Position numbers and translations under genes: made by a program | Notes under the pieces: generated by a model | Database searches by the model: none | What the model was told of the DNA's origin: nothing | Seen by the model: the letters and a program-made list of their open reading frames with translations, nothing else | NCBI GenBank assembly: GCA_041671365.1 | Contig: JBAZBP010000003.1 | Location: forward strand, 34,017-98,016 | Reading direction: 5' to 3' | DNA length: 64,000 nucleotides | From: Patescibacteria group bacterium | Lineage (GTDB): Bacteria; Patescibacteriota; Patescibacteriia; Patescibacteriales; UBA12465 | Part shown: positions 2,273 to 49,906 of the stretch, in pieces | Numbering within the stretch: the stretch's first letter is position 1 | Layout: each line of letters starts with the position of its first letter

Positions 2273-3240
2273 TTAATTTTCAAACTCCAATTTTATTTTT
2301 AATTTATAATCGCTTGGAAACCACCCAGCGAGTTTTTGAGGCTATTCGTCGGGCGCAGCCAAAACAGCTATTTGTTGCGGCCGACGGTCCGCGCTTAGAC
2401 AGAGAAGGGGATAAGGAGAAGTGCGGAGCAACAAGAAGAATTATTGAACAAATTGATTGGGACTGCGAAGTAAAGACTTTATTTAGAGAAGAAAATCTTG
2501 GTTGTAAAACAGGAGTAAGTTCCGCCATTAATTGGTTTTTTGAAAATGTAGAAGAAGGAATTATTTTGGAGGACGACTGTTTACCGATTGATAGTTTTTT
2601 CCCTTTTTGCCAGTTGATGTTGGAAAAATATAGAAACAATAGCAGTATTGGCATGATAGCGGGAACTAATTATTTATTCAGTTATAATGATTTTCAATAT
2701 TCTTATTATCTTTCTAAGCATTGTTACGTTTGGGGTTGGGCGACCTGGAAAAGGGCTTGGAGTTTATATGATTTATCTATCTCTCATTTTCCCGAAAACC
2801 TATTTTTACGAAATTATTTACAGGATAGCTTATCAAGCAATTATTATTTAGATCAGTTTGATTATTTTAAATTTAATAAAATTGATACCTGGGATATCCA
2901 GTGGAGCGCGACTCTGATGAAAAATAAGTTATATTCTATTGTTCCCGTGAATAATCAGATTTCAAATATAGGTCTTGCCGGCACTCACACCGAGAAAAAA
3001 GTTTCTTTATCAATAAATATGCCAAGTAAAGCTATGGATATAGACGAAATTAAACACCCCCCTACAGTAGTATATGATAATGTTTTAGATTTAGTTTCTA
3101 TGAAAAATATTGTCTATAAAGTTATTAAAACTCCAGTTTTAAAAACTTTGTTGATAAAAATAATAAATAGAAAAAATATCAATTTTCTTAAAAAAATATG
3201 GCCTTTTAAATTATATTACTATGTCGGGAGTAAAAAATAA
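2269..3240 (+). CDS. GT-A fold nucleotide-diphospho-sugar glycosyltransferase (GNT-I-like)
   Basis: The N-terminus PILFLIYNRLETTQRVFEAI...LFVAADGPR followed by an ILEDDCLP acidic motif (DXD-like) resembles GT-A transferases. There is a 4-nt overlap with the upstream gene. Confidence 0.5.
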   Translation: MINFQTPILFLIYNRLETTQRVFEAIRRAQPKQLFVAADGPRLDREGDKEKCGATRRIIEQIDWDCEVKTLFREENLGCKTGVSSAINWFFENVEEGIILEDDCLPIDSFFPFCQLMLEKYRNNSSIGMIAGTNYLFSYNDFQYSYYLSKHCYVWGWATWKRAWSLYDLSISHFPENLFLRNYLQDSLSSNYYLDQFDYFKFNKIDTWDIQWSATLMKNKLYSIVPVNNQISNIGLAGTHTEKKVSLSINMPSKAMDIDEIKHPPTVVYDNVLDLVSMKNIVYKVIKTPVLKTLLIKIINRKNINFLKKIWPFKLYYYVGSKK

Positions 3241-8234: not shown

Positions 8235-9338
8235 ATGAAACTTCTGCAAACTAATAAACTATATCCTCCGCATTTAGGAGGAATTGAAAATGTAATTCGC
8301 GATATCGCCGAAAACTTAGCGGCTGATAATAATTTTCAGTCTGATGTTTTAGTCTGTCAGGAAAAAGGGAAGAGGACGGTTGAAAATATAAATAAGGTTA
8401 AGGTTTGTCGGACGGCTAGCTTTGGTCGTTTATTCAGTTTGCCGATTTCTTTTGATTATTTTCGTTTATTTAAAAAAGTGGTTAACGATTATGATTTATT
8501 ATTAATTCATCATCCATATCCGCTGGCTTCGCTCGCTCGCTTCTTATTTTTAAATAAAAAGAAGCCGGTAGCCGTTTGGTATCATAGCGATATAGTCCGT
8601 CAGAAGTTATTTTATTTATTAGTTTATCCTTTTTTATATTTAGATTTAAAAGCGGCTAAAATTATTTTTGTTTCTAGCCGGCGTTTGGCCGAGAAATCAA
8701 AATTACTAAGTAAGTTTTTAGATAAATGCCGAGTTATTCCTTTTGGAGTCGATCTTAATTTATATAAAGTTGATTATAGTTTGAAGGTTTCTGATCTTAA
8801 AAATAAATATGGCCGTTTTATGCTCGCGGTCGGACGCCTAGTTTATTATAAAGGCTATGAAGATTTATTAGAGGCCCTGAAGTTCGTTTCCGGAAAATTA
8901 CTAATAATCGGCACCGGACCACTGGAGGCTGAATTGCGAAGGATAATTAAAGTAAATAGTTTAGAAAGTAGAGTAATAATAATATCCGATCGGCCGGATA
9001 ATCTAGTTCCATATTATCAAGCTTGTGAATTTTTGGTCTTTCCTTCCCGTGCCCGGAGCGAAGCGTTCGGCTTAGTGCAAATTGAAGCTATGGCTTGCGG
9101 CCGGCCGGTTATAAATACTGATTTGCCGACGGGAGTGCCGGAAGTAAGCCTAGACGGTATAACTGGCCTGACTGTTCCGGTTGGTGATTGCGCAAAATTA
9201 TCCCAAGCGATTAAATCTTTGTGGGAAGACGATGAACTGCGCTTAAAGTTAGGGAAAGGTGCTTTAGAGAGGGCGCAGGATAAATATTCTAAAGAAAAAT
9301 TTGAGGTAGATTTAAAAAAGGTTTTATTAGAGATTTAA
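8235..9338 (+). CDS. Glycosyltransferase family 1 (GT4)
   Basis: The N-terminal PPHLGGIENV motif and the C-terminal PSRARSEAFGLVQIEAMACGRPVINTDLPTGVPEV region are GT4 hallmarks. Confidence 0.85.
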   Translation: MKLLQTNKLYPPHLGGIENVIRDIAENLAADNNFQSDVLVCQEKGKRTVENINKVKVCRTASFGRLFSLPISFDYFRLFKKVVNDYDLLLIHHPYPLASLARFLFLNKKKPVAVWYHSDIVRQKLFYLLVYPFLYLDLKAAKIIFVSSRRLAEKSKLLSKFLDKCRVIPFGVDLNLYKVDYSLKVSDLKNKYGRFMLAVGRLVYYKGYEDLLEALKFVSGKLLIIGTGPLEAELRRIIKVNSLESRVIIISDRPDNLVPYYQACEFLVFPSRARSEAFGLVQIEAMACGRPVINTDLPTGVPEVSLDGITGLTVPVGDCAKLSQAIKSLWEDDELRLKLGKGALERAQDKYSKEKFEVDLKKVLLEI

Positions 9339-9374
9339 TTTGCTGATAAATAAGCGCCATATTTAAACTAAATT

Positions 9375-9409
9375 AGAGCTCTTTGATAACTAATCAAGAG
9401 CTCTTTTTT
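9375..9409 (+). terminator. Rho-independent terminator closing the + strand glycosyltransferase operon
   Basis: AGAGCTCTTTGAT / ATCAAGAGCTCT stem (12 bp with one bulged T), a 5-nt loop, then a T6 run, 37 nt after the GT4 stop. Confidence 0.6.
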
Positions 9410-9566
9410 AGTTTAAGGCTTAACTTCGTTTAAAAAGTGCCAGCTAAGTTTTATAAATATTTTATCTATAATTTATTAATATTTTATCTAAGATTAGCGG
9501 TTATTAGGCTTGATTGAAGTTAGCGGAAGTGCTATTATAAATATGTAACTATTAGAGTTTAAATTT

Positions 9567-10412
9567 ATGGCTATTAAAAATGTCGAAAAAAAATTAATTA
9601 ATGACCCCGCGCTTTTTAAGGGGCAAAAAATTCGGCGCGTTATTTTTAATAATGAATGGTGGTTTTCGGTGGTTGATGTTTGCGGGGTATTAACTAATAG
9701 TTCTGATGCCGGCGCTTATTGGCGTAAATTGAAACAAAGGTTAAAGGACGAAGCCAATGAAGCCGTGACATTTTGTCACGGGTTGAAATTAGAAGCTCCG
9801 GATGGGAAAATGCATGAAACCGACTGTGCTAATACCGAGGGCATATTTCGCATTATTCAATCTGTTCCGTCGCCTAAAGCGGAACCTTTCAAGCGTTGGC
9901 TGGCGAAAGTGGGTTATGAACGCGTCCAGGAAATTGCCGACCCAGAACTGGCTACTAAAAGAACAAGAAAACTTTATAAATTAAAGGGTTATAGCGATTC
10001 TTGGATTGAGAAGCGGATGCGCGGTATCGCTATTCGGGAAGAATTGACTGATGAATGGAAAAATAGAGGGGCGCGAGAAAAAAAAGATTATGAAATTTTA
10101 ATGGCTGAAATATCAAAAGCAACTTTTGGCTTAACGCCGACCCAATATAAAAAAGTTAAAGGTTTAGAAAAAGAAAATTTGCGCGATCATATGGACGATC
10201 TCGAACTTATTTTTAACATGTTGGGTGAACGGTCCACTACCGAAATTCATCGAGTTGAAAATTCGCAGGGCTTCAGCAAATTAAAAGACGACTCTAATGC
10301 GGGTGGCGATATTGCCGGAGATGCCCGAAAAAATTTAGAGAAGCGTCTTAAGCGGTCGGTTATAAATAAAAGAAATTTTTTAACGAATCAGGAGAATAAA
10401 AAAAATCTTTAA
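9567..10412 (+). CDS. BRO-N domain DNA-binding protein (prophage antirepressor-like)
   Basis: The N-terminus FKGQKIRRVIFNNEWWFSVVDVCGVLTNSSDAGAYWRKLKQRL matches the BRO-N pattern (phage/virus-associated DNA-binding domain). It is preceded by its own AT-rich upstream region after a terminator. Confidence 0.6.
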   Translation: MAIKNVEKKLINDPALFKGQKIRRVIFNNEWWFSVVDVCGVLTNSSDAGAYWRKLKQRLKDEANEAVTFCHGLKLEAPDGKMHETDCANTEGIFRIIQSVPSPKAEPFKRWLAKVGYERVQEIADPELATKRTRKLYKLKGYSDSWIEKRMRGIAIREELTDEWKNRGAREKKDYEILMAEISKATFGLTPTQYKKVKGLEKENLRDHMDDLELIFNMLGERSTTEIHRVENSQGFSKLKDDSNAGGDIAGDARKNLEKRLKRSVINKRNFLTNQENKKNL

Positions 10413-10420
10413 CTTAATCC

Positions 10421-11746
10421 CTATCTCCCCCCTCGCGACATCATCGTCGCCAGCGTTTTTAGAGTAATCGAGATATCTAAATAAATTGAGCGATGACGAA
10501 GATAATATAAATCGTACTGTAATTTTTCTAAACTGTCTTCCAGGGAGGGGGAATGATAATGGCCGGAGATTTGATCCCAGCCGGTTAAGCCCGGTTTAAT
10601 TAAGAGCCGGGTTTTATAAAAGGGAATTTGTTTTTCCAGTTCGGCAATAATTTCCGGTCGTTCCGGGCGCGGTCCGATAAAACTCATTTCACCTTTTAGA
10701 ATATTAAGGACTTGGGGAATTTCGTCCAGGCGGGTGCGGCGCAGAAACGAGCCGAAACGGGTAATCCGTTTATCGCCTTCGAGCGTTAGGGAACGATCGT
10801 TGTTTTCTTCCCGCATAGTTCGGAATTTTAGAATATTAAAAATTTTTTCATTTTTTCCGCTGCGCGCTTGGCGGAAAAAAACCGAGCCGCGGCTTGTGAG
10901 TTTTATAATCCCGGCGATTAGCGGCCAAACGGGCAGAGAAATAATGAGAATAATCAGAGCGAGTAAAAAATCCAGTAATTGTTTAATAAAATTAAAATAA
11001 TTTTTTTGGCCTTCCTGTAAATTTTTTAAGAACCAATTCTGGTCAATCGCTTCAACCGGTATTTTACCGGTAATAAGTTCATAGAAGTCGGGATAGTTAA
11101 AAAAATTAATATTATAAGCTAAACAATTAAAGAGAGTGTCGCTTAAATCCGCGCCCAGTCCAAAATCATCACAGACAACTATTGTATGGATATTTTTATT
11201 TTTTATATTTTCGACCAGAGACGCAATTTCCTCTTCGGATTTAAAAATTAAAGCGGTTTGATAACCGGCGCCGGGATTATTTTGCAGTTCGGCTAAGAGT
11301 TTTTCGGTTTTGGCGTTAAAGCCGATAAGCGCCAGATTTTCTTTAAGCTTAGAGGAGTGAATTATCGCTTGAAAGGCGGCGCGAAATATAAAGAATATAA
11401 CTAGAAAAATAACGCTAAAAATGGCTAAATTAGTTTTTGGAGTGATAGTCGAAGAAACTTTTAGATAAAAATAGATAATCGCCAGTAAGCTGCTAACGAT
11501 AGTCGTATTACTCAAACGTCCGAGAAATTGACGGCTGGCCACTTTTAGATTTAAGTTATAAAGATCATTAATATATAAAATTAAAAGCCAAATAATAAAA
11601 ACAGGTAAAAAATTAAACCAGTGGTTTTGCCAATTATTAGCCCAAAGTGCCTGTGGATAACGAATAATTAAGGTTAATAATAAGGCCAAATGCAAACCGG
11701 TCAGATCACCGAGAAAAAGGATAAATTTTTTCCAAGAGTTAAACAT
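10421..11746 (-). CDS. Polyprenyl-phosphate glycosyl-1-phosphate transferase (WbaP/exopolysaccharide priming sugar transferase family)
   Basis: Several N-terminal TM helices are followed by the C-terminal catalytic domain, FRQARSGKNEKIFNILKFRTM...DEIPQVLNILKGEMSFIGPRPERPE. This is the bacterial sugar transferase signature. Confidence 0.85.
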   Translation of the reverse strand: MFNSWKKFILFLGDLTGLHLALLLTLIIRYPQALWANNWQNHWFNFLPVFIIWLLILYINDLYNLNLKVASRQFLGRLSNTTIVSSLLAIIYFYLKVSSTITPKTNLAIFSVIFLVIFFIFRAAFQAIIHSSKLKENLALIGFNAKTEKLLAELQNNPGAGYQTALIFKSEEEIASLVENIKNKNIHTIVVCDDFGLGADLSDTLFNCLAYNINFFNYPDFYELITGKIPVEAIDQNWFLKNLQEGQKNYFNFIKQLLDFLLALIILIISLPVWPLIAGIIKLTSRGSVFFRQARSGKNEKIFNILKFRTMREENNDRSLTLEGDKRITRFGSFLRRTRLDEIPQVLNILKGEMSFIGPRPERPEIIAELEKQIPFYKTRLLIKPGLTGWDQISGHYHSPSLEDSLEKLQYDLYYLRHRSIYLDISITLKTLATMMSRGGR

Positions 11747-11841
11747 AATAGATAAATATATAATCTATGTTTAATATAACAGCTTAAGTCTTAAAAATCA
11801 ATAAACTATGCAGAAAAATCGGTTTGTTATTTTAAAAAATA

Positions 11842-11850
11842 TGCTATAAT
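11842..11850 (+). promoter_or_regulatory. Candidate extended -10 promoter (TGcTATAAT) for the 857-aa secreted protein gene
   Basis: TGCTATAAT lies 62 nt upstream of the ATG at 11912 in a divergent intergenic region. No strong -35 element was seen. Confidence 0.3.
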
Positions 11851-11911
11851 AAAATTAAAGCTCGGAGTGCTGGTTGCCCGTGCTATTATTAGACTAAATA
11901 GTTAAATTATT

Positions 11912-14485
11912 ATGTTGATTTTAAAACGTTTTTATTTTTATCTGTTTTTTGTTTTGTTGCTTTCGGGTGCCGTTTTGTTAGGATTGCCGGCTCGAGCGGC
12001 CGAAGAGACTTGCAAACTTAATAATAAGGTAAATTTTACGGCGCGTGATCCGAACGGTACCTATATTCTTAATGCTCGGGTTGATGTTTATAAGCAGGCG
12101 CCGGATGCCGATGGAAATCCGCGGCCGGGAACGAAAGTGGGCGGAGCCACCATCAACACTTTAACCGGTATTGCGCCGGTCAGCTGGCGTAATTCAGCCA
12201 TGGCTGATACTTACGCGATCCGCGTCCAGAATGTCAGTAATGATGATGCTAGTTTTTGGTATTATGGTTTTAATTGGTCTTGCGGCGAAGAGATTTCTTT
12301 AGAGGAAACTCTCAGCGGTTTAAGTCTTGATTTGCGCGACGAGGAAAATAATATTTTAAGTAACGTGACTTTTAAGATTTATACTCAGCTTTATGACGAA
12401 AATGGATCAACTAAACCGATAAAAAATAAATTATTAGGCAGTTTTAATTCCGGTTCTTCCGGCAAAGCCTCTATTTATTTGCCTCAAGGCAGTGTGCGCG
12501 GTCTGGCTCAAATTAGAAGTGATTATTATGTTTTGGAAGTGAATAGCGGCGGTAAAAGTTTTTATCTCTATGATATACACATGACCGATGGCCAGATGAA
12601 TAATATCCAGTATTCTTTAAGCGCCGTTAAACTGTATCTTAAAGAATTTGACGGTCGTAATGCCATCGGTAAGAAGGTTGAGGTTTATAAGCAAGAAAGC
12701 GATATAAATTTTAATTACAGTAAGGGCGTAAAAATCGGCGATATTACGATTGGCTCTAATGGTTATGGCGTGCTAGTGATGCCGGCCGGTGAATATGTTT
12801 TTTCCTATAAAGATGATGCCGGAAAGATTCATGATTTTTGGAGTCGTAGTGTTTTAAACGATGAAGTCAATAATCAGAGTCTGACTTTAGAAGAAGGTAT
12901 TTCCGTGGGTGCTTGTCCTGATAATTTAGATTTTACTTTAATCGCTAAAGATATTACCGGCGGATCGGTGCCGGGTTTAAAGTTTGAAATTTATGAACAG
13001 GTAGTTAATGCTAACGGTCTGCCTTTAGCCGGAACTAAATTAGGGGGCGGAACAATTGCCGGTAACGGTAAAGCGGTTGTCAGCCTTAAACCGGATCCTA
13101 AAAAGTTATACGCTTTAAAGATTTGGGATAAGCGTGCGGATCTGGGTGAATTCTGGTTTTTTGACGCGATTAAATTCGTTTGCGGTTATAATCGCCAAGT
13201 GATTAAAAATTTACCGTCCTTAAGGGTTATTATTCGCGACGCCGCCGGTAATCTTCAAAAAAATAAATCTTTTTCGGTACTGGCTCAGCAATATGATGTT
13301 GATCACAACCCTATCGTGGCCGATAATGGATTAATTGCCGATTTAAAAACCGACGGTCAGGGCCAGGCCGTGATTTATGTTTCCCCCGGTAATCCTTATC
13401 AAACCAATCAGACCGGTTCTTATATTGTCCGCGTTAAAGACGCCGGCGGGTCTACTCATGATTTTTCTAATATTAATATTTCGGCGGATAAAAATTATTC
13501 TTTAGTGGCTGATTTAAGCGGTTTAAGCGGAACTTTGCAGGATGCCGGCGGCCATCTTTTAGCAGACAAGAGTTTAAAATTATATAGCTTTAGCGGCACG
13601 GGATCCGAGCGCCGACTCGGTTCGGTTCTATTAACCGTTAAAACCGGTAGTAAGGGTAGTTTTAGTTTTGAATATGCCGATGGCACTTATGCTCTGGGTG
13701 TTACGGACGAATATAATCAGGAAAATATTTTTTGGGATGCGACGATTAAATCGGGAGCGGCCAAACAAAAATTTGTTTTTAATTTAACGGAATTTGTTTT
13801 ATCCGGTTTGGATGTATCCGTTAAATCGCCGTCTCTCAAGCTTTTTGCCTTGGCGGCTAACAGTAATGGCACATATGTGCGCGGTCGGGATCTTGGTTCT
13901 ATATCTTTAAAGAACGGTCTGGCCTCTAAATATCTGGCGGTCGGACAATATCTGGCTGTATATCAAGGGGTCAAAGATAAAGAATACGGTTTAGCTTTTT
14001 ATGTTACAAATGGGTCTAAATTCCGGGTTAGTATCGGTCTTTCTTCGAAATATTTAGTTAGTTCCGATCAGTCGTTTAGCTTGCAGTCAGCCCCTGCTAA
14101 TGACAATCAGTCTCTCAGTTCCGGTCTTAAGGGTCGAATTTTATTGCAAGTTGAAGATAAAGGTCAGGCCTGGTATGTTAATCCGACGGACGGAAAAAAA
14201 TATGCGCTCGGCCGTCCGCAAGACGCTTTTAATTTGATGCGCCGTTTTGCCTTAGGAATTTCCAATAGTAATTTTGCGGCGATTGAAAATAATCCTTCCG
14301 CTTGGCGGCGTTTAGCCGGCAAAATTTTGTTAAAAACCCAAGATAGTGGCCGAGCTTATTATTTTGATCCGGTTAACTTACAGCTCTATTCTCTCGGCCG
14401 GCCGACGGATGCTTTCCAAATTATGCGTCTGCGGGGTTTGGGAATTACAAATAATAATTTAGGGGTTATTGATAGCGGGAATTAG
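11912..14485 (+). CDS. Large secreted modular protein (Ig/prealbumin-like repeats, C-terminal tandem repeat domain)
   Basis: The signal peptide is MLILKRFYFYLFFVLLLSGAVLLGLPARAAEE. There are repeated ~90-100 aa beta-rich modules and two C-terminal ~55-aa repeats. I recognise no catalytic motif. Confidence 0.6.
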   Translation: MLILKRFYFYLFFVLLLSGAVLLGLPARAAEETCKLNNKVNFTARDPNGTYILNARVDVYKQAPDADGNPRPGTKVGGATINTLTGIAPVSWRNSAMADTYAIRVQNVSNDDASFWYYGFNWSCGEEISLEETLSGLSLDLRDEENNILSNVTFKIYTQLYDENGSTKPIKNKLLGSFNSGSSGKASIYLPQGSVRGLAQIRSDYYVLEVNSGGKSFYLYDIHMTDGQMNNIQYSLSAVKLYLKEFDGRNAIGKKVEVYKQESDINFNYSKGVKIGDITIGSNGYGVLVMPAGEYVFSYKDDAGKIHDFWSRSVLNDEVNNQSLTLEEGISVGACPDNLDFTLIAKDITGGSVPGLKFEIYEQVVNANGLPLAGTKLGGGTIAGNGKAVVSLKPDPKKLYALKIWDKRADLGEFWFFDAIKFVCGYNRQVIKNLPSLRVIIRDAAGNLQKNKSFSVLAQQYDVDHNPIVADNGLIADLKTDGQGQAVIYVSPGNPYQTNQTGSYIVRVKDAGGSTHDFSNINISADKNYSLVADLSGLSGTLQDAGGHLLADKSLKLYSFSGTGSERRLGSVLLTVKTGSKGSFSFEYADGTYALGVTDEYNQENIFWDATIKSGAAKQKFVFNLTEFVLSGLDVSVKSPSLKLFALAANSNGTYVRGRDLGSISLKNGLASKYLAVGQYLAVYQGVKDKEYGLAFYVTNGSKFRVSIGLSSKYLVSSDQSFSLQSAPANDNQSLSSGLKGRILLQVEDKGQAWYVNPTDGKKYALGRPQDAFNLMRRFALGISNSNFAAIENNPSAWRRLAGKILLKTQDSGRAYYFDPVNLQLYSLGRPTDAFQIMRLRGLGITNNNLGVIDSGN

Positions 14486-18356: not shown

Positions 18357-18367
18357 GTAAATTTTAT

Positions 18368-18479
18368 GGCTTTAACGGCGATACTTTCGGGCGCCTGTAA
18401 TTTCGTAGAGTAAAAACGAGCCTTAGCGAGTTTTTGCCACAGAAATTACCGAAGCCAAGAAAGTGTTGCCGGTAAAGCC
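18368..18479 (+). repeat. Hairpin element copy A (112 nt), member of a three-copy structured intergenic family and candidate ncRNA
   Basis: The basal 21-bp helix is GGCTTTAACGGCGATACTTTC / GAAAGTGTTGCCGGTAAAGCC (1 mismatch, 2 G-T wobbles). The conserved core is GCGCCTGTAATTTCGTAGAGTAAAAA ... TTTTTGCCACAGAAATTACCGAAGCC and is shared with the copies at 35564 and 43572. Confidence 0.6.
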
Positions 18480-18496
18480 AGAGTCACAAAAATTTT

Positions 18497-31911: not shown

Positions 31912-31942
31912 AAACCCATTTTGTGTCCAACAAAATGGGTTT
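31912..31942. terminator. Bidirectional Rho-independent terminator between convergent htpX and the flotillin-like gene
   Basis: A perfect 13-bp stem AAACCCATTTTGT / ACAAAATGGGTTT with a 5-nt loop. Read on the minus strand it is followed by TTTTATTTT. The A/T-rich flanks allow function in both directions. Confidence 0.65.
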
Positions 31943-31968: not shown

Positions 31969-34050
31969 TTATTTAATTATCTCTGTTTCATTTGCAACAG
32001 GAGTTTTTTCTTTAAGAGATCCTCCAAGCTTTTGGACTAAAAGCCCAGAAAGAATTGGAAGTAGACCTGAACCATCAGAATTACCACCCTGGATTACGAT
32101 ATCCGGTGTAATCTTGATATTACCGATGGCAATCTGTTTTGAAATTTCAATTGCTACGATTCCTTCAGAGGTAAGGGCTTTTTTCTGTTCTTCGTAACCT
32201 TCCGCAATACCTTTTCCTTCGGCGGCAGCGGCAACGCCTTTAGCCTTACCAAGTAGTTCTGTTCCTTCGGCTTCGCCGGACATTTCTGCTTTTTTGGCTC
32301 CGCCCTTTCCTTCGGCATCAAGAATTGTTTTCTTCTTCAGGTTTTCAGCAATCTGAACATCGATGGACGACTGAACAAGAACGCCTTGCTTTTCTGCTTC
32401 GGCTTTCTTTGCTTCCATGGCGATACGGCCGTTTTGGGCTTCTGTTTCCTTACCGTACATATCTAATTGCTGTTCGGCAATAACTCGTGCTGTTTGAGTG
32501 GCCATTAAATCTGCGGGAAGATCAATTTGGCAAATAAGAACCGAAACCAATTCAACATGATATTTCGCGAGTTCTTCTCTGGTATGATCTTCTGCCTTTT
32601 TCTGCTCATCATGACGATCCTTCATGAAATTCATGGCCGATGTCGCTGAAGCTTGATTTCTGAAACTAGAATCAATCATCGGATGAATCACATGATTTAT
32701 GAGATTTTCAATAGAACCAATCTTTGCAATCATGTGAGGCGCCTGATCCGGTCGAATTCTGATAATTACTTTTACCGAGACATTCATCTGAAAAGCGTCT
32801 CCAGAAACTATTGCTAACGGATTGAATTGAGTTTTATCTCCTTCATCCCAATCAATTGTGATGTTTGTTGTATCAACAATATGAGGAATAAATGCCATAG
32901 TATTTAAATAATAAACACCGGGGCCGGAGACTTCTTCTTGAATACCGCGATATCCGTGAGCAACCACATACCGCTCAATTCCAACATCTAATCTTTTCTC
33001 AAGTTCCACAGCATCATCGGTGTTGGCGCCGATTTTTTCTTTAAGCTGTTGGATGGAAAGAGGTTCTTTCCCGACATTCGAAATGATAACGGCAACCTGA
33101 CCCCGTTGTACTTCGGCTACATTAGTATAATTGACTTCGAACATTAAAGGATTGATGTAGTAAGTTCCGGGTTTTAGAATATCAAGCTGCGGTCCTCTTT
33201 GACCGTGTTGATTGAGAAACGCTTGAGCATCCTGGAAGTTGCTATGACCTTCAACAGAGATAGCAATTAATTCATCCGGAGGAAGCGGTTCGCCGTCTTT
33301 GGCGGTTATCAAACCAACTTGTTTGGAAGTTACAATTGTGGCATCAACAATTTTGTAATTGAAAAGCCAAGTATTTATTCGGTGAGTTCCCGGTTGAAGA
33401 ATGTCAATCTGTGGTCCCTTTTGACCACCATTTTTAAGAAAAATATCTCCATTTGAGAAATTCTCATGACCTTCAATTCTTTTTCCCAATAATCTCCCAG
33501 GATCAAGTGGTTTTCCGTCAGTGGCAGTTACTATAGCTAATTGTCCTTTGGGGATTTCAATTTCATCAACCCCCACTTCGTTATTAACTTTCACTACTTC
33601 AAAAAGATAAGGATTAATCATGTATTGACCGGGAGGAAGAAATGCAACCTGTGGTCCTTTTTGTCCGCCGTTTTTAATAAAACCTTCGCCGTCTTGGAAA
33701 TTGTCACATTCTACGACTTTGGCAAATATTTGTCCGCTGGGAATTGTTGCCCCAGCCAATGCTCGGACCAGCCCTATTTTCCCCTCGTTAATGACCGTGA
33801 ATGGTTCCTTTTTGGTTTTGTATATAAAAGGAGGAAGTAACCAATGAAAGCCTGGACCGAGAGTTCTCGCCTGAAGACCAACTTCATCGCGAAGAGCTAC
33901 TGTACGCCCCACCATTTCTTTCCCTACATACTTTCTCTCAAGCAAGCATATATTTTCTCCTCTAACATTTACGCTAGCGTTGAGAGTTATTACTAAGATA
34001 AATATGCCTAGCAAAGCTAATAGCACACCCATGACAATAGTACTTTCCAT
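31969..34050 (-). CDS. SPFH/Band-7 flotillin-like membrane protein with tandem internal repeats
   Basis: It has an N-terminal TM helix and three ~75-80 aa repeats carrying NGGQKGPQ...L.PG.Y.INP..FEV. The C-terminal Ala/Glu/Lys-rich coiled-coil and flotillin-type tail is AEAEKQGVLVQS...AEGKGIAEGYEEQKKAL. Confidence 0.7.
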   Translation of the reverse strand: MESTIVMGVLLALLGIFILVITLNASVNVRGENICLLERKYVGKEMVGRTVALRDEVGLQARTLGPGFHWLLPPFIYKTKKEPFTVINEGKIGLVRALAGATIPSGQIFAKVVECDNFQDGEGFIKNGGQKGPQVAFLPPGQYMINPYLFEVVKVNNEVGVDEIEIPKGQLAIVTATDGKPLDPGRLLGKRIEGHENFSNGDIFLKNGGQKGPQIDILQPGTHRINTWLFNYKIVDATIVTSKQVGLITAKDGEPLPPDELIAISVEGHSNFQDAQAFLNQHGQRGPQLDILKPGTYYINPLMFEVNYTNVAEVQRGQVAVIISNVGKEPLSIQQLKEKIGANTDDAVELEKRLDVGIERYVVAHGYRGIQEEVSGPGVYYLNTMAFIPHIVDTTNITIDWDEGDKTQFNPLAIVSGDAFQMNVSVKVIIRIRPDQAPHMIAKIGSIENLINHVIHPMIDSSFRNQASATSAMNFMKDRHDEQKKAEDHTREELAKYHVELVSVLICQIDLPADLMATQTARVIAEQQLDMYGKETEAQNGRIAMEAKKAEAEKQGVLVQSSIDVQIAENLKKKTILDAEGKGGAKKAEMSGEAEGTELLGKAKGVAAAAEGKGIAEGYEEQKKALTSEGIVAIEISKQIAIGNIKITPDIVIQGGNSDGSGLLPILSGLLVQKLGGSLKEKTPVANETEIIK

Positions 34051-34275
34051 ATTTTACTCCTATAGATTGATTTTGCTTACTCTTTTTAGGATTTTCAGCA
34101 TTCTCCGTTAGTTTGTTAAAGATCTAACTAAAAAATATAGCATACTATCTATATTTATGTCAAGACCATGAAAATATTGGGAAAATTAATAATTTGTATT
34201 TTTAAATTGTAAAGCCTATTTATTTAAATCTTAAAATAGTTTATAATTTACATAATAATAAAATTAGCTAATGTT

Positions 34276-35577
34276 ATGAAAAAACTAGAACTTCTCGCTC
34301 CCGCCGGCAATAAATTAAAAATGAAAACTGCTTTCGCTTACGGTGCGGATGCGGTTTATTTAGGTATTCCGGATTTTTCTTTACGGGTTAGGATTAATGA
34401 TTTTGACTTAGCGGGCGTTAAAGACGCCGTCCAATATGCTCACCAAAATAAAAAAAAGGTTTATGTGACGGTTAATATTTTTGCCCATAATAAACATTTA
34501 AAAAAATTACCGGCTTATTTAAAACAACTCAGGGTTATGAAGGTAGATGCTTTAATTGCGTCTGACCCCGGAATTATTGCTCTGATTAAAAAGGCTTGGC
34601 CAAAAGCAGAAATTCATTTATCCACTCAGGCTAATTGTACTAATCTAGAGGCGGTGAAGTTTTGGGCGAATCAAGGACTAAAGCGTATTATTTTAGGACG
34701 GGAAGTAACCTTGGCTGAAATAAAAGAAATTCATCGGGCCGCACCGAAAGTAGAATTAGAATATTTTGTTCACGGAGCGATGTGTATGGCTTATTCCGGC
34801 CGCTGTTTTTTGTCTAAATTATTCGTGGGCCGCAGCGCTAATCTGGGCGACTGTGCTCAGCCTTGCCGCTGGCCCTATGAGGTTCAGAAATTTAAATTAA
34901 AAACCGGTGAGCACGAAGAAGAATTAGAATTGGTTGAAGAAACGCACGGCACTTATCTTTTAAATTCTAAGGATTTATGTTTAATTAAGTATTTAAAAGA
35001 ACTGGCCGCCGCCGGCATTACCAGTTTTAAGATTGAAGGCCGGGCGAAAAGTGTTTACTATCAGGCCACCGTTGTCGGAGTTTACCGCCGCGCTTTAGAT
35101 TTATTAAATAAAAAATTGCCGGCGGTAAAATTAAAAGCAGAATTAAATTATTTATACTCGGAGCTGGAAACAAAACTAGTGCAGCGCGGCTATACCACGG
35201 GATTTTTATTGGGCGAGAAGGCCGACCAAAATATTATAAATTCTCATAACAAAAGTGAGTGGGAATTTTGCGGCCAAGTTATCGCGCCGCTTCGGAGTTT
35301 AAAAAAAATTAACGTTACGCCCGGCTACCAGTTAATTTATTTTCAAGTTCATAATACTGTTAGAATCAAGGAAGAATTGGAGATTATTCGGCCTGATTAT
35401 GATATAATTAAAATACGCCCCCTAATGTTATGGAATGCCAAGACCGGGGAAAAAATAACCGAAGCGCATGGCGGCGGAGGCGGGCAGATTGGAGTTTTGG
35501 AAGTGCCAGTCACGGTCGGAAAGATTCCGATTTTAACAGTCGTTAGAAGACTTATTTCTAGTCGGAAGCGACAATAA
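34276..35577 (+). CDS. Peptidase U32 family protein
   Basis: MKKLELLAPAGN...AFAYGADAVYLG and the E.FVHGAMCMAYSGRCFLS cysteine-rich motif are U32 (collagenase-like/RlhA-type) hallmarks. Confidence 0.85.
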   Translation: MKKLELLAPAGNKLKMKTAFAYGADAVYLGIPDFSLRVRINDFDLAGVKDAVQYAHQNKKKVYVTVNIFAHNKHLKKLPAYLKQLRVMKVDALIASDPGIIALIKKAWPKAEIHLSTQANCTNLEAVKFWANQGLKRIILGREVTLAEIKEIHRAAPKVELEYFVHGAMCMAYSGRCFLSKLFVGRSANLGDCAQPCRWPYEVQKFKLKTGEHEEELELVEETHGTYLLNSKDLCLIKYLKELAAAGITSFKIEGRAKSVYYQATVVGVYRRALDLLNKKLPAVKLKAELNYLYSELETKLVQRGYTTGFLLGEKADQNIINSHNKSEWEFCGQVIAPLRSLKKINVTPGYQLIYFQVHNTVRIKEELEIIRPDYDIIKIRPLMLWNAKTGEKITEAHGGGGGQIGVLEVPVTVGKIPILTVVRRLISSRKRQ

Positions 35578-35674
35578 TATTTCTTCGCTTCGGTCATTTC
35601 TGTGGCAAAAATTAGCTGAAGCTAATTTTTACTCTACGAAATGACAGGCGCTCAGAAACATCATTGTCGCTTCC
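35564..35674 (-). repeat. Hairpin element copy B (111 nt), with the conserved core on the minus strand
   Basis: The reverse complement reads GAGCGCCTGTCATTTCGTAGAGTAAAAATTAGC TTCA GCTAATTTTTGCCACAGAAATGACCGAAGCGAAGAAA. The basal helix is GGAAGCGACAAT / ATTGTCGCTTCC, and its 5' arm is the last codons plus the stop of the U32 gene. Confidence 0.6.
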
Positions 35675-35704: not shown

Positions 35705-36283
35705 ATGATTTCATTTCTACGCGGACGAGTAATCAACAAAGGACTTAATTATGCAATCATTGAAACCGGCAATATCGGTTACCAAGTTTTTGCCGGTGAA
35801 AATTTTTTGAATGATCTAAAAATCGATAATGAAGTAGAAATTTATACTCATCATCAGGTTCGAGAAGAAGCCAGCGATTTATACGGTTTTAAAACTTTAG
35901 AAGATTTAGAATTATTTGAATTATTATTAACCGTTTCCGGCGTCGGACCAAAATCGGCTTTAGGCGTTTTAACCATAGCTTCGGCCAGCGATATTAAAGA
36001 GGCGATTATTCGCGGTGACGCTAATTTACTGACTAAAGTATCCGGTATCGGTAAAAAAACGGCGGAACGTTTAGTTTTGGAATTAAAAACCAAAATTTTA
36101 CGCTTTAGTTCGACCGCGACAACCGACAACTCTTCCTTGGTCGGCAGCGATGAAATTGAAGCCTTAATGTCTTTAGGCTATTCTTTTTCTGAGGCGCGGT
36201 CCGCCTTAAATTTAGTTGATTCGGCGATTATTGATAGCGGCGAGCGGGTTAAGGCGGCACTGCGGAAAATAGCCAAAAAATAG
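35705..36283 (+). CDS. ruvA: Holliday junction DNA helicase subunit RuvA
   Basis: MISFLRGRV...GYQVF (OB domain), LLTVSGVGPKSAL and KVSGIGKKTAERL (two HhH motifs), and a C-terminal domain III. Confidence 0.9.
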   Translation: MISFLRGRVINKGLNYAIIETGNIGYQVFAGENFLNDLKIDNEVEIYTHHQVREEASDLYGFKTLEDLELFELLLTVSGVGPKSALGVLTIASASDIKEAIIRGDANLLTKVSGIGKKTAERLVLELKTKILRFSSTATTDNSSLVGSDEIEALMSLGYSFSEARSALNLVDSAIIDSGERVKAALRKIAKK

Positions 36284-39649: not shown

Positions 39650-40690
39650 ATGTTCGCTAATCTCTTAGGAAAATTTAGTCATGATTTAGGTATTGATTTA
39701 GGTACGAAAAATACTCTGGTTTATGTCGCCGATAAGGGGATTGTCATTAATGAACCGAGCGTAGTCGCGATTAATAAACGAACTAATGAAATTTTGGAAG
39801 TCGGAGAGGCGGCTAAAAAAATGGTGGGTAAAACTCCCGGACATATCGAAGCGATTAAACCCCTGGTTGACGGAGTTATTTCTGATTTTGAAATAACGGA
39901 AAAAATGTTGAAATATTTTATTAATAAAGTCCATAGCGAAAATTTTACTCTTATTTCTCGGCCGCGAGTAGTTATCGGTATTCCTTTGGATCTGACAGAA
40001 GTAGAAAAAAAAGCGGTTGAAGACGCGGCTAAGTCCGCCGGCGCCCGCAGTGTTTACTTAATAGATGAGGCCATGGCGGCGGCTATCGGCGCGCGTTTGC
40101 CGGTGACGGAAGCAACCGCTACTATGATAGTTGATATAGGCGGCGGTACGACCGAGATTGCGGTTATTTCTTTGGGCGGAGTGGTAACCTGGAAATCATT
40201 AAAAGCCGCCGGTAATGAATTTGATAATAATATTATCGAATATGTTCGAGAAGAGTTTAATATTTTAATCGGTGAACAGCTGGCAGAAAGTATTAAAATA
40301 GCGATTGGTTCCGCCGTGCCGCTAGATGCGCCGCAAGAAATTGAAGTGCGCGGGCGCGACTTATTAACCGGTCTGCCCAAAGCCTTATTGGCTAGCGATA
40401 AACAGATTAGAGAAGCGCTGAGCCGAACGGTTACCAGGATTATTGATAACATCAAAACAATTTTAGAAACCACGCCGCCGGAGCTGGTTTCCGATATTTA
40501 TGAACGCGGTCTATTTTTATCGGGGGGCGGCGCCTTGTTGCGCGGACTGGATAAAGCGATTTCGGCCGCCACTAAGATTCCCGTTAAAATAGTGGACGAT
40601 CCTTTAACTTGTGTCGCTCGGGGGACAGGAATTTTATTGGACAATAAGGAGTTGCTTGATAAAGTAATGATGCCAACCAGACAGAATTAA
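39650..40690 (+). CDS. mreB: Rod shape-determining actin homologue MreB
   Basis: LGIDLGTKNTLVY, EPSVVAI and DIGGGTTEIAVISLGG. It is followed by mreC and mreD. Confidence 0.93.
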   Translation: MFANLLGKFSHDLGIDLGTKNTLVYVADKGIVINEPSVVAINKRTNEILEVGEAAKKMVGKTPGHIEAIKPLVDGVISDFEITEKMLKYFINKVHSENFTLISRPRVVIGIPLDLTEVEKKAVEDAAKSAGARSVYLIDEAMAAAIGARLPVTEATATMIVDIGGGTTEIAVISLGGVVTWKSLKAAGNEFDNNIIEYVREEFNILIGEQLAESIKIAIGSAVPLDAPQEIEVRGRDLLTGLPKALLASDKQIREALSRTVTRIIDNIKTILETTPPELVSDIYERGLFLSGGGALLRGLDKAISAATKIPVKIVDDPLTCVARGTGILLDNKELLDKVMMPTRQN

Positions 40691-43571: not shown

Positions 43572-43685
43572 GTAATTCGAAATTATATTTTAGAGAGCGA
43601 TTGTTTTTTTCGTAGAGCAAAAATGAATTTTAATTCATTTTTGCCCCAGAAAATAACTAGCGAACAAAATATAATTTCGAATTAC
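43572..43685 (+). repeat. Hairpin element copy C (114 nt), a diverged member of the family
   Basis: A perfect 20-bp basal helix GTAATTCGAAATTATATTTT / AAAATATAATTTCGAATTAC. The core is GAGCGATTGTTTTTTTCGTAGAGCAAAAATGAAT TTTA ATTCATTTTTGCCCCAGAAAATAACTAGCGAAC. Confidence 0.5.
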
Positions 43686-45565: not shown

Positions 45566-46573
45566 ATGTTTATTAAACGAATCGGGATCGATCTCGGAAC
45601 AACTTATACTTTAATTTACGTGCCAAAACGCGGAATTGTTATTAATGAACCAAGCGTGGTAGCGGTATCCGTTGATGACCAGAAAATATTGGCGGTGGGT
45701 AATGAAGCTAAAGACATGATTGGCCGAACGCCGGATACGATTACCGCCGTTCGTCCGTTGAAAGATGGAGTGATCGCCGATTATCGGGCGACGGAAGCGA
45801 TGATTCGTTATTTTATCAATAAAACTTTAGGCGGTGTTAGATTATTTCGTCCGGAAGTAATGGTGGCTGTTCCGGCCGGAATTTCTTCGACCGAGCGTCG
45901 AGCGGTAATCGAGGCGACAATCGCGGCCGGAGCTAAAGCGGCTTATATCATTAAGGAGCCGGTAGCCGCGGCCATTGGTGCCGATATTCCCATCGGTTCG
46001 GCGACCGGCCACATGGTGATTGATATCGGCGGGGGAACGGCGGAAATGGCGGTTATTTCTTTAGGCGGAATTGTGGCCTCAACTTCAGTCCGAGTTGGCG
46101 GTAATAAGTTCGATGCCGCGATTTTAGAATTTGTCCGTAAAAAATATAATTTAGCTATTGGTGAGCGGACAGCCGAAGAAATAAAAATTAATATCGGCTC
46201 GGCTTTGTATATTGAGGATAAATTATATATGGAAGTTCGTGGTCGAGATATTGTGACCGGTTTGCCGCGTAGTATTACCGTTTCCAGCGATGATGTGACC
46301 GAAGCGATTCAAAACGAATTAGAAGCGATTATTTCAGTCGCTAAAAAAGTTTTGCAGAAAACGCCGCCGGAACTGTCGGCCGATATTATGGACAAGGGCA
46401 TTGTGTTGACGGGGGGAAGTTCTCTGCTGCGTAATATTGATCAATTGATTGCCAGAACAACCGGCGTATCGGCTTATGTCGCCGATGATGCGATGCTCTG
46501 CGTAGCCAAAGGAACGGGGATTGCTTTGGACAATTTAGATTCTTATAAACGCAGTATCCTGGCCACCAAATAA
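45566..46573 (+). CDS. mreB: Second MreB-like actin homologue
   Basis: IGIDLGTTYTLIY, EPSVVAV and DIGGGTAEMAVISLGG. It aligns end to end with the MreB at 39650..40690. Confidence 0.9.
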   Translation: MFIKRIGIDLGTTYTLIYVPKRGIVINEPSVVAVSVDDQKILAVGNEAKDMIGRTPDTITAVRPLKDGVIADYRATEAMIRYFINKTLGGVRLFRPEVMVAVPAGISSTERRAVIEATIAAGAKAAYIIKEPVAAAIGADIPIGSATGHMVIDIGGGTAEMAVISLGGIVASTSVRVGGNKFDAAILEFVRKKYNLAIGERTAEEIKINIGSALYIEDKLYMEVRGRDIVTGLPRSITVSSDDVTEAIQNELEAIISVAKKVLQKTPPELSADIMDKGIVLTGGSSLLRNIDQLIARTTGVSAYVADDAMLCVAKGTGIALDNLDSYKRSILATK

Positions 46574-47821: not shown

Positions 47822-47881
47822 GCCATAAATTCGCGGCTTTTTTGGAAAAAACTTTGAACTGTGATACTATTAAGGTGTTGT

Positions 47882-49906
47882 ATGAATAAATTACTAACAT
47901 CTTTTTTTATATTTATATTACTGGCGGTCCCGTCGGTTTCAGCGGCCGTTAAGCCGAACGATTTTTATTATGGAAATCAGTGGTATTTGTCTAAAATTAA
48001 AGCGGACAGTGCCTGGGATATAATTTCTGCCAGTCCGAATATTATTGTGGCGGTAATTGATGGTCGGATTCAGATTAATCATCCGGATTTGCGTGACAAT
48101 ATTTGGGTTAACCATAAGGAGGCGGCTAATAATAAACTGGATGATGATCGTAATGGTTTTATTAATGATATTAGCGGTTGGGATTTTGTCGATAATAGTC
48201 CCGAGCCGTCAGTTCAGTTTGACTCTGGTTGGAATGAAGCCGGAGTGACGCACGGCACAATGATTGCCGGTATTATCGCCGCCAGCGGTAACAATGAACA
48301 GGGTGTATCCGGCGTTACTTGGAGGGCAAAGATTATGCCGCTTCGAGTTTTAAATGACCGAGGTGAAGGAAGGGTGAGCGATGTGGTGCGGGCGATTGAT
48401 TATGCTATTAATAACGGGGCGAATATTATTAATTTAAGTTTTGTGTCTTTTAATTATAGTGAAGCTTTACAGGAAGCAGTTAGCCGTGCTCATAAAGCGG
48501 GAGTAATTGTCGTGGCGGCCGCCGGCAATGAACAAGCGAGCGGTGCCGGTTACGATATCGATCAGACCCCGATTTATCCGGCTTGTTATGACGGGCCATT
48601 TGGCGAGAACATGGTTATCGGTGTGGCGGCTACAGACGCTCTTGATCAAAAAGCTAAATTTTCCAGTTATGGTTCACGCTGCGTGGATATCGCCGCCCCC
48701 GGTATAAGTTTCTTCAGTACCGTGACGGCCGGCGGAGATATTAACGATCCCGGGAAAATATATGACGGTTATTGGTCAGGAACTTCAATGGCCGCACCTT
48801 TAGTTTCGGCGACTCTAGCGTTGATTGAGGAAGTTAATCCGGAATTAAGTCCGCGGGAAGTTGTTAATATTTTATTTGCTTCCACGGATAATATCAGTCG
48901 TCTGAATCCGGATTATCCCGGAGAACTTGGTAATGGTCGTCTTAATGTTTTTAAAGCTGTCGCCATGGCTAAGGGAGAATTATATAGTCGTTCAGGGCGT
49001 TTAGTGTTAGCAACGGGCCAAGGCGTTAAAACCCCGAAATTAGCGGCGGCCAACGGCGATCTCGTTAGCTCATTGTCGGTTAGTACTTTTCCTAGCGGTT
49101 CTAATTTTGCCGCCGGAGATATTAATGACGATGGCTTAGAGGAGTTAGCGGTCGCATCCGGCCCGGGGCGGGAACCGCAGGTTAAAATTTTAAATTCCGC
49201 CGGCAAGTTGTTAAAACAATTTTTAGTATTTGATTCTAAATTTCGCGGTGGAGTTAATGTGGCGCTTAGCGATTTAAACGGCGACGGCCGGGCGGAAATT
49301 ATTGCGACGGCCGCCTCGAGCGGCAATGGCCAGGTTCGTATTTTTAATTCCCAGGGCAAGTTGTTAAAACAATTTTTAGTAGACAATAAAGCTTGGCGTG
49401 GCGGTTTAAGTTTGGCCGTCGGTGATTTGGACGGCCGAGGCCAGAAAGAAATTGTTGTCGGCTACGGCCAGGGGGCGGCGCCGATAGTGAAAATATTTAC
49501 GCCCGAAGGCCGCATATTAAGCTCTTTTTATGTTTATGAAAAAAAATTTCGGGGCGGGGTAAAAGTGGCCGTGGCCAATATCGATGGCCGCCGAGATTAT
49601 AATAAAGCGGAAATTATTGTCGCTCCGGGGCCAGGACGAGAATCGCAAATTAAGATTTTTGATAATCGGGCCGTTTTAAAAAAACAGTTTTTAGGTTTTC
49701 GTTCCAATTGGCAGGGCGGAGTTAATCTCACGGCCGGCGATATTAATAACGACGGAATCGGTGAAATTGTAGTCGGGGCGGCGGCGGGTGCGAGTCCCCA
49801 TGTTCGTATTTTTGATAACGAGGGGTTATTGTTAGAATCTTTTTACGCTTGGGAAGAAAGCTGGAGTGGCGGAGTGAATGTTGGTATAATAAATATAAAT
49901 AATTAA
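47882..49906 (+). CDS. Secreted subtilisin-like serine protease (S8) with C-terminal FG-GAP/VCBS-type repeats
   Basis: I prefer ATG 47882 (MNKLLTSFFIFILLAVPSVSA signal peptide) over the track GTG 47861. The catalytic triad contexts are AVIDGRI (Asp), THGTMIAGIIAA (His) and GTSMAAPLVSA (Ser). They are followed by at least 5 repeats of ..GD[IL]NxDGxxEI[IV]V...P.V+IF. Confidence 0.85.
   Translation: MNKLLTSFFIFILLAVPSVSAAVKPNDFYYGNQWYLSKIKADSAWDIISASPNIIVAVIDGRIQINHPDLRDNIWVNHKEAANNKLDDDRNGFINDISGWDFVDNSPEPSVQFDSGWNEAGVTHGTMIAGIIAASGNNEQGVSGVTWRAKIMPLRVLNDRGEGRVSDVVRAIDYAINNGANIINLSFVSFNYSEALQEAVSRAHKAGVIVVAAAGNEQASGAGYDIDQTPIYPACYDGPFGENMVIGVAATDALDQKAKFSSYGSRCVDIAAPGISFFSTVTAGGDINDPGKIYDGYWSGTSMAAPLVSATLALIEEVNPELSPREVVNILFASTDNISRLNPDYPGELGNGRLNVFKAVAMAKGELYSRSGRLVLATGQGVKTPKLAAANGDLVSSLSVSTFPSGSNFAAGDINDDGLEELAVASGPGREPQVKILNSAGKLLKQFLVFDSKFRGGVNVALSDLNGDGRAEIIATAASSGNGQVRIFNSQGKLLKQFLVDNKAWRGGLSLAVGDLDGRGQKEIVVGYGQGAAPIVKIFTPEGRILSSFYVYEKKFRGGVKVAVANIDGRRDYNKAEIIVAPGPGRESQIKIFDNRAVLKKQFLGFRSNWQGGVNLTAGDINNDGIGEIVVGAAAGASPHVRIFDNEGLLLESFYAWEESWSGGVNVGIININN

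Follow-up and report, generated by a model that had tools for sequence, protein, structure and literature searches.

A flipped copy of a probably undescribed hairpin family at the 3′ end of a U32 peptidase gene in Patescibacteria

The junction between a U32-family peptidase gene and ruvA in a 64,000-nucleotide stretch of a Patescibacteria genome (contig JBAZBP010000003.1, positions 34,017 to 98,016; hereafter the window) carries a 111-nucleotide (nt) hairpin element, copy B, at 35564..35674. Its conserved polarity, judged from its fold and from a covariance model, lies on the minus strand. Copy B is very probably one member of an undescribed family of ∼111-nt hairpin elements dispersed in Patescibacteria, in relatives of 'Falkowbacteria'. 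Across this family a single strand is under selection to fold, and whole hairpins are found inverted in place between related genomes; copy B is one of these flipped copies, and one of its arms appears to have given the peptidase a new C-terminal tail. The account that combines this family, this history, and a mechanism acting through the folded strand is in our judgment the best overall explanation, and we would put it only a little short of an even chance.

The U32 open reading frame (ORF; 34276..35577, + strand, 433 aa; PF01136, Peptidase_U32, precomputed for the identical protein P0001) ends ...AGT CGG AAG CGA CAA TAA, with the stop codon at 35575-35577. The proximal basal arm of copy B, GGAAGCGACAAT (35564..35575, +), spans the codons (C)GG AAG CGA CAA and the T of this stop, and the distal arm, ATTGTCGCTTCC (35663..35674, +), is its perfect complement (inverted repeat I2) at a spacing of 87 nt. 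An earlier note on this DNA had given these coordinates, arm sequences, spacing, and codon overlap, and all proved exact on re-reading. The 12-base-pair (bp) repeat is not significant alone, as about 2.3 perfect inverted repeats of this length within 150 nt are expected per simulated window of the same composition. The hairpin as a whole is significant. The 12 bp form the base of a continuous 111-nt hairpin that folds at −63.7 kcal/mol on the minus strand (z = −10.8) and at −51.1 kcal/mol on the plus strand (z = −8.9), and the covariance model scores 110.4 bits on the minus strand versus 45.5 bits on the plus strand, in line with the earlier assignment of the core to the minus strand. The ruvA gene (35705..36283, +; PF01330, PF14520, PF07499) begins 30 nt 3′ of the hairpin.

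Searching the window with this model (R1) returns exactly three copies, which score 89-110 bits in the conserved polarity and 28-45 bits in the reverse one. Copy A (18367..18480, +, 101.4 bits) lies between the genes for an M50 (RseP-like) peptidase and a hibernation factor (S30AE), and copy C (43572..43685, +, 88.8 bits) lies between a sugar epimerase-like gene and a HIT-family gene. Copies A and C and all of the flanking genes are on the plus strand, so copy B is inverted relative to its neighbors, as had been proposed. The three copies have no basal-stem sequence in common and share the interior pattern UUUUGAGCG...UUUC-GUAGA-GYAAAAA...UUUUUGC-CNCA-GAAA...AGCGAAAA. Pattern scans located 13 element loci in Patescibacteria metagenome-assembled genomes, several of them labeled 'Gammaproteobacteria' in third-party assemblies, and 29 loci in metagenomes; distinct instances in Patescibacteria contigs number 44. 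Copies score 75-111 bits on their conserved strand, as against 23-50 bits on the reverse. Viral contigs gave zero matches to the element, and 14 further metagenome pattern matches (termite gut and others) were unrelated sequences on inspection. At the locus L012 (3843-4050), two hairpin copies stand in direct tandem orientation ∼25 nt apart, the first partly masked by N.

The predicted structure is borne out by covariation. The alignment of the 44 sequences was fitted to the covariance model; 97.4% of its cells are paired, both sides have changed in 21 of 32 pairs, none of 500 shuffles matched this, and no slid register of the alignment came near the observed pairing and covariation. An analysis of 16 copies with MAFFT and RNAalifold, which is independent of that model, agrees, with 32 pairs of which 16 show compensatory changes. 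At the gathering threshold of Rfam 15, the sole match in the whole window is DUF805b at 34074-34108, with none at the hairpins, and relaxing the threshold to E ≤ 10 for copies A and B returns only chance miRNA and snoRNA matches of 12-18 bits. No description of this hairpin family was found in the literature searched. Identities as SRP RNA, 6S RNA, Y RNA, a k-turn, or loop E were set aside for sequence mismatch and for the multiple copies.

The element has three stems, one at its base that is particular to each locus and two more (P2 and P3), in all of which variation is compensatory; the modules between the stems are near-invariant and non-Watson-Crick. The basal stem is 20-25 bp long and locus-specific, with a conserved A/U-rich proximal part, and the terminal 12-20 nt differ wholly between copies while the interior is conserved. 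In copy B, internal loop 1 consists of GAGCG (35649..35653, −) on the 5′ side opposite AGCGAA (35584..35589, −) on the 3′ side; in alignment A3 this juxtaposes G.A, A.G, G-C, C-G, and G.A, that is, tandem G.A pairs flanking GC/CG, and the pairs at columns 29/113 and 30/112 covary. Beyond it, a short stretch in which some pairs covary and U.C and C.A oppositions recur leads to helix P2, which is variable, covarying, and 8-9 bp long (columns 36-44 with 98-106 are 97.4% paired, with double changes in 3 pairs). Internal loop 2 sets C-GUAGA-G against C-CNCA-G and is near-invariant in the 44 instances; its 5′ side, GUAGA, lies at 35633..35637 (−), and its 3′ side, CACA in copy B, at 35601..35604 (−). 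The apical hairpin P3 (35605..35632, −) is a conserved GYAAAAA/UUUUUGC stem followed by a variable tip, which alternates C-G, G.A, A.G with U-A, U-A, A-U. Its loop is UUCA in copy B and mostly GUUA (13 copies) or GCUA (5) in the family, with GNA triloops in the others and an overall preference for G-Y-U-A. In 42 of 44 instances GUAG-A stands 5′ of a P3 stem of 7-12 bp, and GTAG itself ends 1 nt from that stem; the motif is located inside the larger hairpin, and the stem beside it is A/U-rich. These comparisons indicate that the loops are read sequence-specifically, because they stay invariant under neutral divergence that is saturating.

The pairing record also shows which strand is selected. 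Paired columns in the 44 instances hold 50 G.U or U.G oppositions and 7 A.C or C.A oppositions. Split by orientation relative to both flanking genes, the counts are 25 versus 3 in anti-oriented copies and 17 versus 4 in co-oriented copies. One strand is selected to fold, whatever the direction of the neighboring genes. About 17 copies are co-oriented with their flanking genes and about 15 anti-oriented, counts in which copies at one locus are non-independent observations, and the mean model scores of the two groups are equal (∼97 and ∼96 bits). That the element works or persists regardless of orientation is thus supported, since the near-even split falls between two classes that are equally conserved and strand-polar, and the same loci can hold either orientation.

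It is improbable that the copies are simply cis-acting intercistronic hairpins of messenger RNA (mRNA), serving as a 3′ exonuclease barrier, attenuator, or processing site for which any long hairpin would suffice in either orientation. The copies are always intergenic, often abut or overlap a stop codon, and occupy sites that resemble boundaries between functionally unrelated genes, and both strands of copy B fold stably (−51 and −64 kcal/mol), all of which such a function would accommodate. It leaves unexplained, however, the near-invariant asymmetric loops and the maintenance of pairing on the non-mRNA strand of anti-oriented copies (the 25 G.U versus 3 A.C above). A new G.U pair in the copy B lineage arose on the minus strand, and the genome uses ordinary short terminators elsewhere. 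One of these, a 13-bp terminator hairpin (AAACCCAUUUUGU...ACAAAAUGGGUUU, 31912-31942) between convergent M48 peptidase and SPFH genes, is an example of a normal terminator in this genome, unlike the element.

The copies are long-term residents of their loci. They lie 1-30 nt from both neighbors in the otherwise very short spacers of housekeeping operons, at the junctions M50 peptidase/hibernation factor, U32/ruvA, epimerase/HIT, parA/parB, ruvX/recO, and TPR protein/tRNA-Thr and downstream of atpA, and a copy usually has its closest relative at the same locus of another genome. Orthologous elements are 0.83, 0.92, and 0.86 identical, whereas four-fold sites of their flanking genes are 0.48, 0.58, and 0.38 identical. 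Element identity so far above that of four-fold sites argues for purifying selection, not decay in place. In three genomes (L003, 1972-2157; L044, 1032-1220; L019, ∼370-551), the hairpin follows a TPR-protein gene and precedes, by 0-4 nt, a tRNA-Thr(GGU) gene on the same strand.

At several of these loci the orientation differs between genomes. The epimerase-to-HIT junction holds a co-oriented element in the window (copy C) and in L011 and an anti-oriented one in L002, L001, L020, and L028; the M50-to-S30AE junction holds a co-oriented element in the window (copy A), L050, and L008 and an anti-oriented one in L038. Between L002 and L011 the flanks are colinear, and the element is 92% identical yet wholly inverted. 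At the U32-ruvA junction, the copies of the window and of the orthologous locus L057 have a basal stem in common with that of L061 (GGAAGCGAYAATGATG, including the G.U positions) in the opposite orientation. The whole hairpin inverts in place between relatives, and copies are fixed at loci across species and occasionally gained or lost; copy B is such a flipped copy. This in-place turnover would presumably proceed by recombination or template switching between the hairpin's own arms.

A currently active miniature transposon of the MITE, ERIC, or REPIN type that has spread recently in the genome is a very improbable source of the copies. Their dispersal as a ∼110-bp palindrome in both orientations, the patchy presence at one junction, and the similar basal stem at another locus, L024, would fit such an element. 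Within a genome, however, the copies are only 67-70% identical and have no terminal sequence in common, no flanking direct repeats or target duplications were seen beside the stems, the nearest relatives are same-locus copies in other genomes, and neither a transposase in the window nor a match in viral contigs was found. At L024 (2355-2465), where fpg and a gene for an AI-2E transporter flank the hairpin, the basal stem (GAAGCGGCCAUAUG...) resembles those of the U32-ruvA copies; the element may once have been duplicated to a new locus together with its stem.

Twelve orthologous U32-ruvA junctions were compared, and the element is present in five and absent from seven. It is anti-oriented over the stop codon in the window, in L057, and in L058, which is cut by the contig end, and in these three the U32 protein ends in SRKRQ. 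It is co-oriented after the stop in L059, where the tail is RRRINN, and in L061, where the tail is ...KYTEEDQK. The seven element-free junctions (L060, L062, L011, L063, L064, L065, and L066) have spacers of −4 to ∼40 nt, apart from 337 nt of other sequence in L062, and unrelated tails. In all of 120 U32 homologues the conserved domain ends ...RR(K/L)x and is followed by a variable tail of 0-9 aa; among these 120, SRKRQ occurs only in the proteins of the window, L057, and L058, whose stop falls in the arm of the inverted element. Window copy B, L057, and L061 have a common stem with the element-sense 5′ arm GGAAGCGAYAATGATGTTTC, including G.U positions, and in L061, where the element is turned over and stands 6 nt past the stop, the homologous basal arm lies wholly outside the ORF. 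The arm is thus element sequence that the ORF ran into, rather than coding sequence that the distal arm came to match. The comparison supports the view that the element supplied the C-terminal tail (RKRQ): in the lineage of copy B, the U32 reading frame would have run into the arm and stopped there.

The earlier note had offered two origins for this arrangement, a new C-terminus brought by the element or a distal arm selected to pair with pre-existing coding sequence, and had proposed orthologues lacking the element as the check. The first is supported by the confinement of SRKRQ to genes whose stop is inside the arm, by the L061 arm outside the ORF, and by the seven element-free orthologues, which have unrelated tails, no SRKRQ, tight junctions, and no downstream complement. 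The second is not supported as an origin but holds for later evolution, in which a synonymous CGA/CGG difference is matched by T/C in the distal arm. Between the window and L057, the stems differ by three double compensatory changes, one of them at this synonymous third position, and by one change from A-U to G.U that is tolerated only on the minus strand. From these differences it appears that, after capture, the U32 codons and the distal arm co-evolved.

Several further observations concern such junctions. A second stop codon within an arm occurs at L006 (∼3024-3138), where an anti-oriented copy includes in its basal arm the TAA of the 692-aa gene upstream. At L061 (2760-2806), 19 nt from the 3′ end of the U32 gene are duplicated in tandem (TATACGGAGGAAGATTAAA / TATACGGAGGAAGATCAAA) directly 5′ of the hairpin. 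The tail YTEEDQK results from this duplication, which may be a scar left by the insertion. The 337-nt U32-ruvA spacer of L062 (2800-3136) has no hairpin of this family and holds another inverted repeat, AAACCGCTATAG...CATATAGCGGT. An apparent insertion at ruvA in L011 is a run of N and not an element. The idea that basal stems were pre-existing terminators invaded by a mobile core was ruled out by the element-free junctions, which are without a hairpin. In the U32 tree, which is star-like, taxa with and without the element are interleaved, a pattern that would fit a single gain or several.

Promoter and terminator signals bear on whether the element is an independent gene. Weight-matrix scores for −10 sites are the same upstream of the copies as on the mirror side (p = 0.47), −35/−10-like sites occur upstream at 5 of 44 copies versus 7 of 44 on the mirror side, and the promoter scan around copies A, B, and C was negative, with no sigma70-like promoter called upstream of copy B on the minus strand. 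Hexamers resembling −10 sites (AATTAT and TATTAT) do occur 7-8 nt upstream of copy B and of its L057 orthologue. No terminator-like sites were called at A, B, or C, which lack the short G+C-rich stem and U tract of an intrinsic terminator. A dedicated promoter or a terminator of its own, as in an independent small RNA gene, was not found for the element; so far as these signals go, an independent antisense RNA from copy B is neither supported nor refuted. The genome does use a canonical promoter elsewhere, a TTGACA promoter near 34160, upstream of a DUF805b RNA (RF02914; 34074-34108, −; 40.2 bits against a gathering score of 35.6) in the 5′ leader of the SPFH/Band7 gene at 31969-34050.

Selection of one strand whatever its neighbors' direction, taken together with the lack of a dedicated promoter, suggests that the element functions in single-stranded, folded form, with a protein bound to it. 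We infer a trans-acting protein, specific for both sequence and structure, that would bind this strand. In the most economical version this strand would be a hairpin of DNA, extruded or transiently single-stranded, whose loops and bulges are read and whose stems need only pair, following the logic of REP/RAYT systems and attC; operon mRNA also carries co-oriented copies, as very stable hairpins. This DNA-level reading is tentatively ranked slightly ahead of a structured RNA, because it needs no unobserved antisense transcription and fits the gain, loss, and inversion of copies as well as the GTAG beside the stem.

Several points weigh against it. No transposase, HUH, integrase, or Nop-domain gene is found among the ∼57 ORFs of the window, and no protein partner was identified there; in vivo extrusion of the hairpin is assumed; and purifying selection this strong on resident copies is not as described for REP/MITE families. 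Structured RNAs are the more familiar setting for tandem G.A modules and for G.U pairs in such number, and the position of the three orthologous copies 0-4 nt upstream of a same-strand tRNA-Thr fits co-transcription. Orientation relative to replication is neither random nor biased enough to decide: by GC skew, the sense strand is the G-rich strand at 22 loci and the C-rich strand at 11. The window itself is a single replichore, with copies A and C on the leading strand and copy B on the other.

A structured small RNA family, acting as a protein-binding scaffold or ribonucleoprotein (RNP) component, is a serious possibility about which we have more doubts. Transcription of each copy would follow its conserved polarity, and copy B would yield an antisense RNA across the U32-ruvA junction. 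Variable covarying stems around invariant loops are the architecture of a functional RNA, and the excess of G.U over A.C, the tandem G.A at three sites, the interchange of G.A/A.G with U-A/A-U in P3, purifying selection as strong as at codon positions 1-2, the copies directly 5′ of tRNA-Thr, and the −10-like hexamers at copy B and its L057 orthologue are all in keeping with it. Yet promoter sites are no more frequent upstream of the copies than on the mirror side, the element is followed by neither a U-tract nor a terminator, copies are wedged 1-30 nt from genes inside operons (parA-parB, downstream of atpA), and half of them would require antisense transcription through housekeeping operons. 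The apical loops, moreover, are G-Y-U-A and GNA and not GNRA, and no Rfam family matches.

A broader proposal spans both forms. The family might be a new class of host-beneficial element specific to the ultra-small genomes of the candidate phyla radiation (CPR), in which a protein particular to the lineage binds a single-stranded module, either RNA or extruded DNA; we consider this rather unlikely as a specific claim. The module would be recognized through three G.A-rich motifs and maintained at dozens of fixed operon boundaries, and it could flip freely, since its partner would read the folded strand and not the surrounding genes. Candidates for the system would be a domesticated HUH/REP-type system or a new abundant RNP.

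The window has a few other features away from these hairpins. A 51-nt direct repeat (49178-49228 and 49331-49381, at 153-nt spacing) lies inside a subtilase/FG-GAP gene (47861-49906) and is probably a repeated protein module. Within a glycosyltransferase cluster, at 9338-11912, unusually long spacers of 229 and 166 nt enclose a gene for a BRO-N domain protein (9567-10412) and a sugar transferase gene on the opposite strand, and the region may be a small insertion of phage-related origin. Two mreB paralogues are present within 6 kb, at 39650-40690, followed by mreC and mreD, and at 45566-46573.

Among described systems, the TIGR guide RNAs (tigRNAs) share a host group with the family, as they are CPR-enriched long hairpins with unpaired, non-covarying spacers in arrays beside tas (PMC12045711; bioRxiv 10.64898/2026.09.09.750476). 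Both have palindromic stems of variable sequence and, close to the internal loops, short conserved motifs. That the element is a stem-loop tigRNA for a Tas (Nop-domain) protein, of the systems common in CPR bacteria, is nevertheless the least credible of the alternatives. The likeness to CPR TasR clades, which extends to a variable palindromic outer stem, two variable segments of ∼9-11 nt that short conserved motifs flank, and a further hairpin within the loop, is superficial. The two variable segments pair and covary as helix P2, whereas covariation is absent from TIGR spacers; the copies stand singly at scattered sites in housekeeping operons, with no arrays beside tas and no Nop-domain protein in the window; and the motifs are arranged as a dyad rather than as a twice-repeated box C...box D.

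The REP and REPIN elements, which are extragenic palindromes served by RAYT (Y1/HUH) transposases, carry a GTAG tag beside a short stem (PMC3733652, PMC3116915, PMC3333891). A REP by itself is a palindrome of 20-40 bp that has an unpaired GTAG at one end. Like REP and REPIN elements, the element lies between co-directional genes in either orientation, sometimes reaches into genes, forms hairpins of ∼100 nt in single-stranded DNA or mRNA, accumulates compensatory changes, persists for long periods, and has one recognized strand. Its GTAG, 1 nt 5′ of P3, adjoins a short stem and resembles the REP tag described in PMC3733652. The ends of a REPIN are invariant and its spacer variable, whereas here the ends are unrelated and the interior loops invariant. 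Each element has one GTAG and CNCA in its second half, in place of the two inverted REPs of a REPIN, and copies within a genome are highly diverged, unlike REP/REPIN copies. No RAYT (Y1 transposase) gene was found among the ORFs of the window.

Other palindromic repeats offer partial parallels. The ERIC/IRU elements of enterobacteria are ∼127-bp imperfect palindromes with shared termini and TA target duplications, and the family resembles them in its residence in transcribed intergenic spacers, its two orientations, its high cross-species conservation, and its presence/absence polymorphism. ERIC sequence is common along the whole element, termini included; here only the loops and proximal stem parts are common, and neither the conserved terminal inverted repeats nor the target-site duplication of a MITE or ERIC was found. 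The attC site of integrons is a recombination site read as a folded single DNA strand; it has R″/R′ cores (RYYYAAC/GTTRRRY) at its base, occurs in cassette arrays of uniform orientation, and needs the integron integrase. The family shares with attC the conservation of structure and a few unpaired bases with free stem sequence, and attC too often overlaps the 3′ end of the upstream ORF. Unlike attC, its basal stems are unrelated between copies and without R″/R′ cores, its orientation is mixed, its copies form no arrays, and the window has no integrase. Rickettsia palindromic elements (RPEs) are inserted in frame inside genes and translated throughout. They and the mycobacterial MIRUs are, like the family, palindromic or intercistronic repeats in reduced or compact genomes that join reading frames or overlap stop and start codons; unlike in RPEs, only 4 codons of one arm are translated here.

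Patescibacteria genomes are among the most compact known, with spacers of a few bases, yet in this lineage ∼110-nt hairpins are kept at conserved operon boundaries under selection as strong as that on protein-coding positions. The same element in both orientations at one locus is a natural experiment on whether dispersed palindromes function at the level of RNA or of folded DNA, which has yet to be settled for REP and ERIC elements, and the U32 gene is an example of a gene that appears to have gained a C-terminal tail from a repeat arm and then to have co-evolved with the opposite arm through synonymous sites. The nearest kinds are REP/REPIN, ERIC-type palindromic repeats, and folded-strand sites such as attC, but the family lacks the conserved ends of REPINs and ERIC elements, target duplications, R″/R′ cores, and arrays. 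It is distinguished by a combination of traits: its asymmetric loops are invariant and its stems free, one strand polarity is selected, strong purifying selection acts on copies at fixed loci, and the hairpin flips in place.

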